Assembly: GCA_951406725.2 (NCBI GenBank)
Contig: OX597837.1
Location: forward strand, 36,332,001 to 36,396,000
DNA length: 64,000 nucleotides
Origin: Octopus vulgaris
Taxonomy: Eukaryota
Direction of reading: 5' to 3'
Part shown: piece by piece, positions 24,055 to 27,510 of the stretch
Layout of the letters: every line of letters starts with the position of its first letter
Position numbering within the stretch: the stretch's first letter is position 1
The notes under the pieces: model-generated
Seen by the model: the letters and a program-made list of their open reading frames with translations, nothing else
Told to the model about the DNA's origin: nothing
The model's database searches: none
Position numbers and translations under genes: made by a program

Positions 24055-24460
24055 AAGAAAGGTAAATTTGATCTCATCCGGTTGAGCAATCAGAACGTAG
24101 ACAAGTGAAACAAAGAGCGCAAAGTTTTTGGCCTGATGCTCTAACGACTCTGAGAGTTTTTAGCCTTGATTAGAGTTAGTATTTATAGATTTTGACAAAC
24201 AAAAAAATAAATAAAAAGAAAGGTGAAGTTGGCTTTAGTCGGATTTGAACTCATAAAGTAGGGAATTGAAAGCAAACGTGTAAAGCACCGTTGGATGATC
24301 TAACGACTTCACCTTGTTTAGTATTCAAATCTTTGATCTTGAAAAAGAAGAAAGAATGATAGGTAAAACTGGTTTCGGCGGGATTTGAACTCAGATCAGG
24401 AAGAGCCGAAAGAAGGATGGTAAATCACCTTGTCCGATGCTGTAACGATACTCTAACAAG
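24055..24460 (-). repeat. Tandem array of 3 degenerate SINE-head units (minus strand)
   Basis: Reverse B-boxes at ~24065, 24241 and 24381 (GGATTTGAACTC), each preceded by an A-rich run and followed by ..GATGCTCTAACGACT-like sequence. Confidence 0.7.
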
Positions 24461-24532
24461 CGTTGCCCCAGCTACCTTAACACTTAAAAGAAATGAGAGG
24501 ACAGTCATGGCTGGAACGCTTTTAATATAAAT

Positions 24533-24760
24533 TTCTTTACTACCCACAAGGGGCTAAACATAGAGGGGACAAACAAGGACAGACAAACGGATTAAGTCGA
24601 TTACATCGACCCCAGTGCATAACTGGTACTTTATTTATCGACCCCGAAAAGATGAATGGCAAAGTCGACCTCGGCGGAATTTGAACTCAGAACGTAACGG
24701 CAGACGAAATACGGCTACGCATTTCGCCCGGCGTGCTAACGATTCTGCCAGCTCGCCGCT
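24533..24760 (-). mobile_element. Full-length family A SINE
   Basis: Near-identical to 58241-58472 and to the reverse complement of 62533-62764. Confidence 0.92.
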
Positions 24761-25029
24761 TTTAATATATAAAATCTTCCACTCTATTGCGTTTGACCTG
24801 AAGCTAAATAACAAAATAATATCAACGTTCCACCGCCCTACGCAGCCTCCGCATCGCCACCCTCACCAAAAACTAAAAAAAAAAAGACATTACATCATTG
24901 ATTACCATACGATCACCATTCAATAATACAACACATACTTCAACATAATCGGTATTCAATAAGATAACATAATCGATATCATAACATGATCGATCTCCGA
25001 TAACATCAAACAGCCCTACAAACAACCCG

Positions 25030-25125
25030 TAACTCACGTTACAGAAAGTCTTCGTAATCACCGCCCAATAAATTATGGCTGCTCACATTGTGCGTCCCCG
25101 CCATCTTACACGGCGAATTGGCTCA
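25030..25125. promoter_or_regulatory. Candidate Pol II core promoter / regulatory island
   Basis: Within ~65 bp: CCGCCC, CCAAT, ATTATGGCTGC, CCCCGCCATCTT (YY1-like) and ATTGG. CpG-rich and unique in the window; a minus-strand donor-like AAC|GTGAGT lies at ~25032-25040. Confidence 0.4.
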
Positions 25126-27510
25126 GTCGTTAGGACATCGGATCACGCAGGCTTAGAATCTTGCTCTCTTCGTTTCAGCACCTCACGATCCAAGTTCGAA
25201 TTCCGCCTGCCTCAGCTTTACCTTTCATTTTCATCTTTTTTTTTTTTTTTTTTTTTTGCTTTTCGAGATCGATGAATTGAATACTAAACAATGATGTTGG
25301 AACACCGGACAAAGTGTCTTGCCCTCTTTGTTTCAGATCTTAACGATCTGAGTTCAAATCCTGCCGGATCAGCATTACCTTTCATATTTTATTTTATTTT
25401 ATTTTTTTCTTGTTCGAGATCGACGAATTGAATAGAAAACAATGTTGTTAGGACATTAGACAAAATGCCTCGTGCTCTTTGTTTCGGCTTTCCACGATAC
25501 GAGTTCAAATCCTACCGAAATCGGCTTTGCCGTTCATATTATTATTTTATTTATTTTTTTCCAACCGAGGCCAGCTTTGCCTTTCACTTTTAAGGCAATG
25601 TCGTTAGAGCTCCAAACAAGGTTCATTGCACTATTTGTTTCGGCTCTCTACTTTCTGAGTTCAAACCCCTGCCGAGATCACTTTTTACCTTTTTATTTTA
25701 TTTTATTTTATTTTTATTCGAGATCGAAAAACAGATAATTAATCAAAGCAATGTGATTACAACATCGGTCTTGAGCCTTTTTTTTTTTTTTTTTTTTTTG
25801 GTTCTTCACGATCTGAGTTCAAATCCAGCCGGAATCAACTTTAGCGTTTAGTTTTGGGATATTTTTTTTTGTTTGGTTGGGGGTGGGGCATTTTTATTTT
25901 TCGATATTGATGACTAAAATCATTTACATTTGTGAAGAAAAAAAGATACCCTTCCCCCACTTCTAACCCTAACCCTAAAACAGATTGAAATGCAATAGAT
26001 CGATACTAAGGTCATAATTATGGGTGACAATTTCATATGACACCGCTAGAAAAAACTGCCGTTCAAACCGAAAAGATCCCTACAAATTGGCAAAGTCGGT
26101 AGGGCATCGGGCAAAACAATTTACGCTATCGACGTTCTCATTACTCAATCCACCGAGATCAAATTTATCTTCTCAACCCTCAAGACAGAATAATAAGATA
26201 CTAACCAAGGTAGAGTCGTTAGAGCTTCAAACAAATGTGCCGAGCGCTGTTTGTTGCGAAACTCTAAGATCCAAGATCAAATCACACCGTGGACCATTTA
26301 CCTTTTATTTTATTTTTCATTATTTATTTTATTTATTTATTTATTTTGTCTTTATCAAGATCGATGAAAAGCAATTCTACCCAAGACCACAAGTTGGCAG
26401 GGTCGTTAGAGGATAGGATAAAAATACTTTGCACCTCTTTGTTTCGGCATTTCACGATCTCAGTTCAAATCTTACCGGGACCAAATTTGCTTTTCATTCT
26501 TTTTTTAATTTTTTTTTCCGAGATCGATGAGTAGAATATTAATCAGTGCAGAGTCGGTAGAGCATCGGACGAAGTACTTCGCGCTCTTTCTTTCGATTCT
26601 TTACGATCTAAGTTCAAATCCAGCCGAAATTAATTTTACCTTTTATATTTCTTTTTGGGGGGTGGGGCGAGATCGCTGAAGGAAATATTAATCAATGCAG
26701 AGTCGTTAGAGCATCGGACGAAGTACCTCGTGCTCTTTGCTTCGATTTTTTACGATCTGAGTTCAAATCCAGTCGAGATTACATTTACCTTTTATCTTCC
26801 CCTTTTTTTCTTTTTTTGGGGTGGGTGGGGGGATCTGAGAACGCTGAACGAAATATTAATCAAGGTGGGGTCGTTAGGGTATCAGACAAAATACCTTACA
26901 ATCTTTGTTTTGGCTCTTTACGTTCTGAGTTCAAATCCTTTTGAGATCAAATTTTTTTTTTCGTTTTCTTTTTCTTCGAAATCGATGAATGATAATTTTA
27001 ATCAAAGGAACAAATTGACGGGGTCTTTACAACATTGCACAAAATGCTTTGCGATCTTTGTTTCGGATATGTACGCTCTGTGTTCAAACACACTCAAAGC
27101 CATCTCCACCTTTTATCTTCATTTTTTTTTTCTTCGATCGATAAATTAGCGACGAATTGTAATAGAGTCGTTAGAGCATCGAACGAAATGCCTTGCGCTC
27201 TTTAATTCGGCTCTCTACGTTCTGAATTCTAATCTTATCGAGGTCATTTTTACCCTTCGTCTTTTCGAGATCGATAAATGCTAGTAAAAAGCTATGAATT
27301 GGCCACGTCGTTAATGCATTGAATGAAATGCCTCGTAGTGTTCGTTCCAACTCTTTGCATTCCGGGTTCAAATCCTGTTGAGGTCATCTTTACCCTTCAA
27401 CCTTCTGGGGTCGATGAATAAAGTATCAGATTAGAGACATAGATTGCTGGAATCGATTTTCTACTGACAGGATTTTGTTGTAGCTCTTTGCGTTTTAATT
27501 TCAAATCCAT
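25125..27510 (+). repeat. Tandem array of ~15 diverged ~150-bp SINE-head units (A-box-like, B-box, oligo-T, TCGAGATCGA)
   Basis: B-box (G)AGTTCAAATCC or variants at ~25193, 25350, 25501, 25657, 25815, 26140 (weak), 26273, 26461, 26610, 26759, 26927, 27080, 27224, 27365 and 27497. Confidence 0.88.
25920..26082. mobile_element. Unrelated insertion in the array containing TAACCCTAACCCTAA (possible Helitron/Helentron-type fragment)
   Basis: Breaks the 150-bp periodicity and carries a short telomere-like motif; class assignment is tentative. Confidence 0.35.

Follow-up and report, generated by a model that had tools for sequence, protein, structure and literature searches.

A mirrored minisatellite of SINE-head units in an octopus genome and the possible retention of its B-boxes as TFIIIC sites

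Why should two head-to-tail arrays of small SINE-derived units face away from a short stretch of single-copy DNA, and are the Pol III-type boxes in these units kept for some purpose? The question is raised by a locus within a 64,000-nucleotide stretch of the 2.8-Gb Octopus vulgaris genome, referred to as the window below. The preliminary description of this locus claimed three units plus one full SINE on the left and about 15 units on the right. Our profile search found 18 units, i.e. 15 on the + strand (R01 at 25107 to R15 at ~27546) and three on the - strand (Lf1-3, 24032-24468), with E values of 1e-4 to 1e-29 except for R15, a partial match with E 0.002 (Table 1). The unit counts on both sides hence stood, but the full SINE is a later insertion, as it belongs to a young subfamily and the same 13-nt sequence flanks both of its ends. 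The units were rightly called highly diverged: their heads have a mean pairwise identity of 63%, and the closest pair, R09/R10, reaches 88%. The core of ~350 bp is also unique as claimed, since the segment 24765-25125 matches nothing in the genome but itself. Ranked among the microsatellite-free stretches of 424 kb (1644 microsatellites), the locus comes second in length, and neither a tRNA gene nor an Rfam family was found within the 64-kb window.

Table 1. Parts of the array (positions in the window) and related satellites (positions given after each locus handle)
Feature	Position	Strand	Remarks
Left unit Lf3	24032..24167	-	B-box destroyed; sister of R06 (support 99/97)
Left unit Lf2	24168..24326	-	B-box intact, T5 tract
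Left unit Lf1	24327..24468	-	B-box intact, T5 tract
Left piece of the core, severed by young SINE insertion	24469..24530	.	No match among fetched loci
Young full-length SINE, later insertion	24531..24759	-	Target-site-like duplication; outside the array proper
Single-copy core	24770..25106	.	GC 39%, CpG o/e 1.71; motifs that we take to be CCAAT (25065-25069) and YY1-like (25098-25107)
R01, leading unit	25107..25273	+	SINE 5' end; A-box perfect (25119); one mismatch in the B-box (25194); T22 tract
R02-R05	25274..25921	+	B-box motif intact in 4/4, A-boxes degenerate, extended T-rich tracts
Unrelated young high-copy repeat fragment (~159 bp)	25922..26080	.	One terminal inverted repeat end; probably MITE-like
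R06-R13	26080..27287	+	B-box of R06 destroyed; R09/R10 duplicated most recently
R14 and R15	27288..27546	+	Least derived units; match the two heads of the parent SINE; R14 without T tract
Parent SINE tail, probable remnant	27604..27635	+	Score 30 vs mean of 18 in shuffles, p 0.006
Young homogeneous satellites from parts of the parent SINE's head	L101 4645-8053, L102 3964-5230, L103 4476-6531, L250, L251		

Alignment traces the units to the first of the two heads of an old tRNA-derived SINE. A genome-wide search for two exact B-boxes 140-160 bp apart gave 132 matches, against none for the reversed pattern. From the 100 matches listed, 79 loci were taken, in which the longest head-to-tail run is two heads in 56 loci, three in seven, and four, nine and 26 in one locus each, with 0-1 in the other 13. 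Aligning 75 of the loci yields a two-headed element with a tail and a median head spacing of 147 bp. The tail of this SINE (e.g. at L010, L020 and L140) is ~150 bp long, and variants with 3-6 heads occur. All 18 units score higher against head 1 than against head 2, R15 barely so, and R14-R15 together with the downstream DNA align to the dimeric parent and its tail, although the tail match is weak (Table 1). The claim that the units are the 5' part of a SINE is thus right in that they consist of the head only, but their source is an older subfamily and not the young full-length SINE. Their ~150-bp period, which had been proposed to position nucleosomes, is inherited, since the dispersed parent copies already space their heads in this way; we therefore reject a period tuned to the nucleosome.

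The origin of the array as a SINE-derived minisatellite is well supported. Seven array-typical changes were recognized, of which R01-R05, R07-R13 and Lf1-3 carry 4-7 each and R06, R14 and R15 carry none. Several of them are rare in dispersed controls, e.g. C at column 63 (11/18 units vs 0/14 controls) and A at column 85 (9/18 vs 2/44). The units Lf3 and R06 have a destroyed B-box in common and are sisters in the tree (Table 1). This tree, which omits two controls, is otherwise star-like and poorly resolved (35 of 57 inner branches open), and the array does not form a single clade in it, but the label 'dispersed' requires only three changes on it as compared to 15.7 when shuffled. As both arms carry the same locus-specific changes and one unit of the left arm groups with one of the right, we attribute the growth to local duplication of DNA with an inverted copy. 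The T-rich tracts are longer nearer to the core (rho -0.61, p 0.02, 14 units), and no clear strand-biased substitutions were seen in the units. We found no dispersed copies of the array-type unit using two motifs with three and five matches genome-wide; the six matches outside the locus are two ordinary old SINE copies and four unrelated sequences. Dispersal of this unit by retrotransposition hence has no support, and sequential self-insertion is rejected as the origin of the array because the units are head-only and have private changes in common. In the course of events that we envisage, a founder SINE copy would have gathered about seven private changes and a T-rich tract and would then have expanded through unequal exchange between its two heads or through slippage between them, with three units being duplicated in inverted orientation onto the far side of the core during this probably early DNA-level expansion.

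Such expansion is found elsewhere in the genome. Our searches for similar arrays, which require intact B-boxes, uncovered other arrays of SINE heads, and we inspected 12 multimer loci taken from the 100 matches listed out of 126, plus two more. L101, L102 and L103 hold 26, 9 and 13 units that are 84-94% alike, L250 and L251 hold nine and eight, and L245, L246, L252 and L253 are diverged 4-6-mers whose units are 56-72% alike. Among the matches listed in these intact-B-box searches, our locus is the longest diverged array, and none of the others has two head-to-tail arrays that point away from each other. Two multimer searches were made free of the box: the first one led to unrelated satellites (100 of 104 matches listed; reversed control 222), and the second gave 60 matches with one old multimer locus, too few for controls. 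In L252 (3070-3795), all five units reaching the B-box keep GTTCAAATC, three of which sufficed for detection. A different family, with 3-4 tandem ~145-bp units each carrying GTTCAAATC, was observed at L216, L217, L222-L224, L230, L238 and L244, where the units adjoin a reading frame on the opposite strand; it resembles the repeats at the 5' end of a LINE. Within the window, young SINE copies at 31686-32222, 33428-33846 and 62534-62947 contain tandem units of ~184 bp that lack the head. Broken frames at 6345-7017 and 10542-11380 resemble a LINE reverse transcriptase and its C-terminal region, and the two pieces of them that were scanned gave no Pfam hit.

The B-box had been described as the best-kept part of the units. 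It is indeed the best-kept 12-column window in the array, but dispersed copies also keep this window best, with 0.78 vs 0.69 elsewhere among 30 of them (p 0.006), though to a lesser degree than the array. In the tree built from the 18 units, the 9-nt core of the box took 1.78 parsimony steps per column as compared to 3.58 elsewhere (base-matched permutation p 0.0026; p 0.0076 for the 12-mer), in units that are related and non-independent and at a locus chosen by eye for its good-looking B-boxes. Position 59, which TFIIIC is not known to constrain, is invariant too in the array. We compared the array with 44 dispersed old copies of similar age picked through motifs outside the B-box, i.e. all 30 loci of one set and 14 of the 30 of another, whose other 16 loci were dropped as other repeats (judged by eye) or, in one case, as an intermediate-subfamily copy. 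Divergence outside the B-box is 0.289 in the array and 0.289 in the controls, and inside the B-box it is 0.144 vs 0.254. The ratio between the B-box and the rest is 0.50 for the array (CI 0.26-0.82) and 0.88 for the controls (0.73-1.06), with a bootstrap P of 0.019-0.044 for the difference over six variants; rank tests that set the array against the control sets one at a time had p values of 0.03-0.26. The B-box motif is intact in 11/18 units vs 13/44 controls (p 0.04), the other seven units having at least one mismatch to GTTCRANNC. For the partner heads of dimers, which were found with the B-box masked, the ratio is 1.09 (20 rows, two of them without letters at the box and about three from doubtful dimers). 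Our data are hence modest to moderate evidence of constraint on the B-boxes of the array; the refuting outcome named in the preliminary description, a B-box conserved no more than other parts of the unit, was not observed when similar-age dispersed SINEs were taken as the measure.

Our analysis tentatively suggests that the minisatellite has had its B-boxes kept as a cluster of TFIIIC-binding sites and not as a set of RNA genes, a reading that we put somewhat short of an even chance. Slower change of the B-box, ordinary decay of the A-box and the lack of a common fold fit a cluster of TFIIIC sites better than RNA genes. TFIIIC would occupy the B-boxes of both arms and organise the chromatin around the core, and the T tracts would halt stray Pol III transcripts after 90-130 nt.

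Nearly as likely as such a protein-docking cluster is a functionless old SINE minisatellite of the same origin, in which the B-box advantage would come from chance together with the choice of the locus by eye, or from short gene conversion favouring the best-matching stretch, and the T tracts from slippage. Tandem expansion of the parent SINE's head recurs in the genome (L101-L103, L250-L251, L245, L246, L252, L253), and dispersed copies show some B-box advantage. The locus has tolerated two young insertions as well as dead B-boxes, and a unit with a dead box (Lf3/R06) was itself duplicated. There is also no gene found in the 424 kb for a boundary to protect: we scanned about 100 of 1601 candidate frames, mostly top-ranked ones plus a few others, and none passed the Pfam cut-off, a scan that short exons and non-coding genes would escape. 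What speaks against a neutral repeat is the within-array B-box test (p 0.003-0.008), the different ratio in age-matched controls and the partner heads, which are unascertained for the box and have no B-box advantage. As to a chromatin border, the CpG o/e, an indirect measure of it, is 0.72-1.0 on either side over the 424 kb with no step; the 8-kb bin holding the array has 1.15, above this range, and among 60 control loci about half of those that hold old copies are poor in CpG (o/e 0.08-0.5).

It is improbable that the units are small Pol III genes giving 90-130-nt RNAs transcribed outwards from the core. The kept B-box and the gain of T4/T5 tracts are what such genes would need: a run of at least five T's within ~55 nt after the B-box was found in 14 of 15 units (R06, R15 and Lf3 excluded) as compared to 5 of the 39 placeable dispersed copies among the 44, so that the T-run, said to be lacking in dispersed copies of family A, is commoner in the array but occurs in a few of the old dispersed copies. 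In the 12 right-arm units with a tract, the predicted lengths to the first T4 are 89-121 nt. R01, with its perfect A-box, is the best candidate in the array and perhaps its single genuine Pol III unit; R08, R14 and Lf2 combine a perfect B-box with a single A-box mismatch. However, no unit of the 18 is perfect in both boxes, and one of the four units with a single mismatch in total, R14, has no T tract. A-boxes are kept no better than in controls (on average 1.59 mismatches in 17 units vs 1.19 in 27 controls, p 0.15). There is no consensus fold among 15 units (R05, R06 and R15 left out), the mean folding z is -0.25 vs -0.59 in 30 controls, and no Rfam or tRNA match was found. The proposal that the array yields ~90-110 nt RNAs is weakened accordingly by the boxes and the fold.

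The core had been regarded as a promoter-like island, a view that our data do not support: its motifs are common, with 21 YY1-like sites in 424 kb, and the ~100 frames scanned revealed no exon of a host gene nearby. A coding first exon in the core is rejected, since its frames are short and the scanned ones yielded no exon downstream. The core is matched without differences by contigs of the runs X1 (24869-25063) and X2 (24876-25048), and X3, a run from another organism, has a contig over 26407-26623 that shows 11 differences along 218 nt; as the types of these runs were guessed, the cover attests presence and not transcription. The contigs of X1, X2, X3 and X7, again with guessed run types, consist mostly of the young SINE and the inserted repeat and leave parts of the array uncovered, which carries no weight. 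Within 26455-26508, the X3 contig has three A>G differences in R08, at 26462, 26467 and 26480; two of them lie in its B-box, which they would bring closer to the tRNA consensus. It is very improbable that the arms act as an inverted repeat, a read-through transcript folding back into imperfect dsRNA for A-to-I editing, or that the core serves as a Pol II promoter between T-rich stretches poor in nucleosomes. In favour of this are the predicted duplex of the arms (-326 vs -144 kcal/mol in 20 shuffles), the three A>G sites within 19 nt and a CpG o/e of the core that ranks in the top 1% of 389 windows. Against it, the arms pair at a poor 66% over 375 nt, the A>G differences may be differences in the DNA given the other organism and the guessed run type, the number of CpGs in the core is nothing unusual (19% of windows reach it) with GC at background, and the YY1-like motif is common.

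Returning to the cluster of TFIIIC sites, we speculate on a wider reading, which we consider unlikely: the mirrored cluster would organise chromatin around a small regulatory core and would belong, with other intact-B-box old multimers such as L252, to a genome-wide class of such sites. If this chromatin-organising reading is true, the locus would be an animal counterpart of the inverted-repeat boundaries of fission yeast. If the B-boxes are kept, this old unhomogenised array would link SINE-derived satellites, described as by-products, with TFIIIC boundaries, known mainly from yeasts and mammals, and would offer a single-copy, mappable locus for TFIIIC function in a cephalopod-like genome; if it is neutral, it is an ordinary old repeat.

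Our literature search, covering its sources in part, found no paper on such arrays in octopus, and three known systems come close. The complex (dimeric and trimeric) tRNA SINEs, as far as the accessible parts of the reports describe them (PMC3531059, PMC4758252), resemble the parent, which has two tandem tRNA-like heads and a tail and occurs in copies with 3-6 heads; the array itself is a DNA-level expansion and not a mobile multimer, since its locus-specific changes were not met with elsewhere. The SINE-derived satellites (sSat) of squamate reptiles are 70-290-nt tandem units from part of a tRNA-derived SINE; their terminal units continue to the SINE ends, short loci are heterogeneous, and similarity increases with unit number, with means of 81-88% (PMC10702118, accessible part). 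Like them, the octopus array has head-to-tail units shorter than the SINE with at least four middle units, R01 keeping the SINE 5' end and R14-R15 plus the tail remnant standing at the 3' end. Unlike the longer sSat loci, the octopus units are only 63% alike, as compared to 84-94% in L101-L103, homogeneity being a tendency and not a criterion. The array adds an inverted second arm across a unique core and a preferential retention of the B-box, for which we found no parallel in the accessible part of PMC10702118. At the IR-L/IR-R boundaries of the S. pombe mating-type region and at ETC (extra TFIIIC) loci, TFIIIC is present without Pol III, and B-box clusters without Pol III act as boundary elements (PMC4502379, PMC3245943, accessible parts). 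As at IR-L/IR-R, octopus B-box clusters in inverted repeats flank a region, and as at ETC loci, the B-boxes are kept without a matching retention of A-boxes, at modest strength. The S. pombe and ETC sites were demonstrated by binding and deletion, whereas the octopus array is known from its sequence; its enclosed region is ~0.6 kb and its sites, in contrast to theirs, are derived from a SINE.
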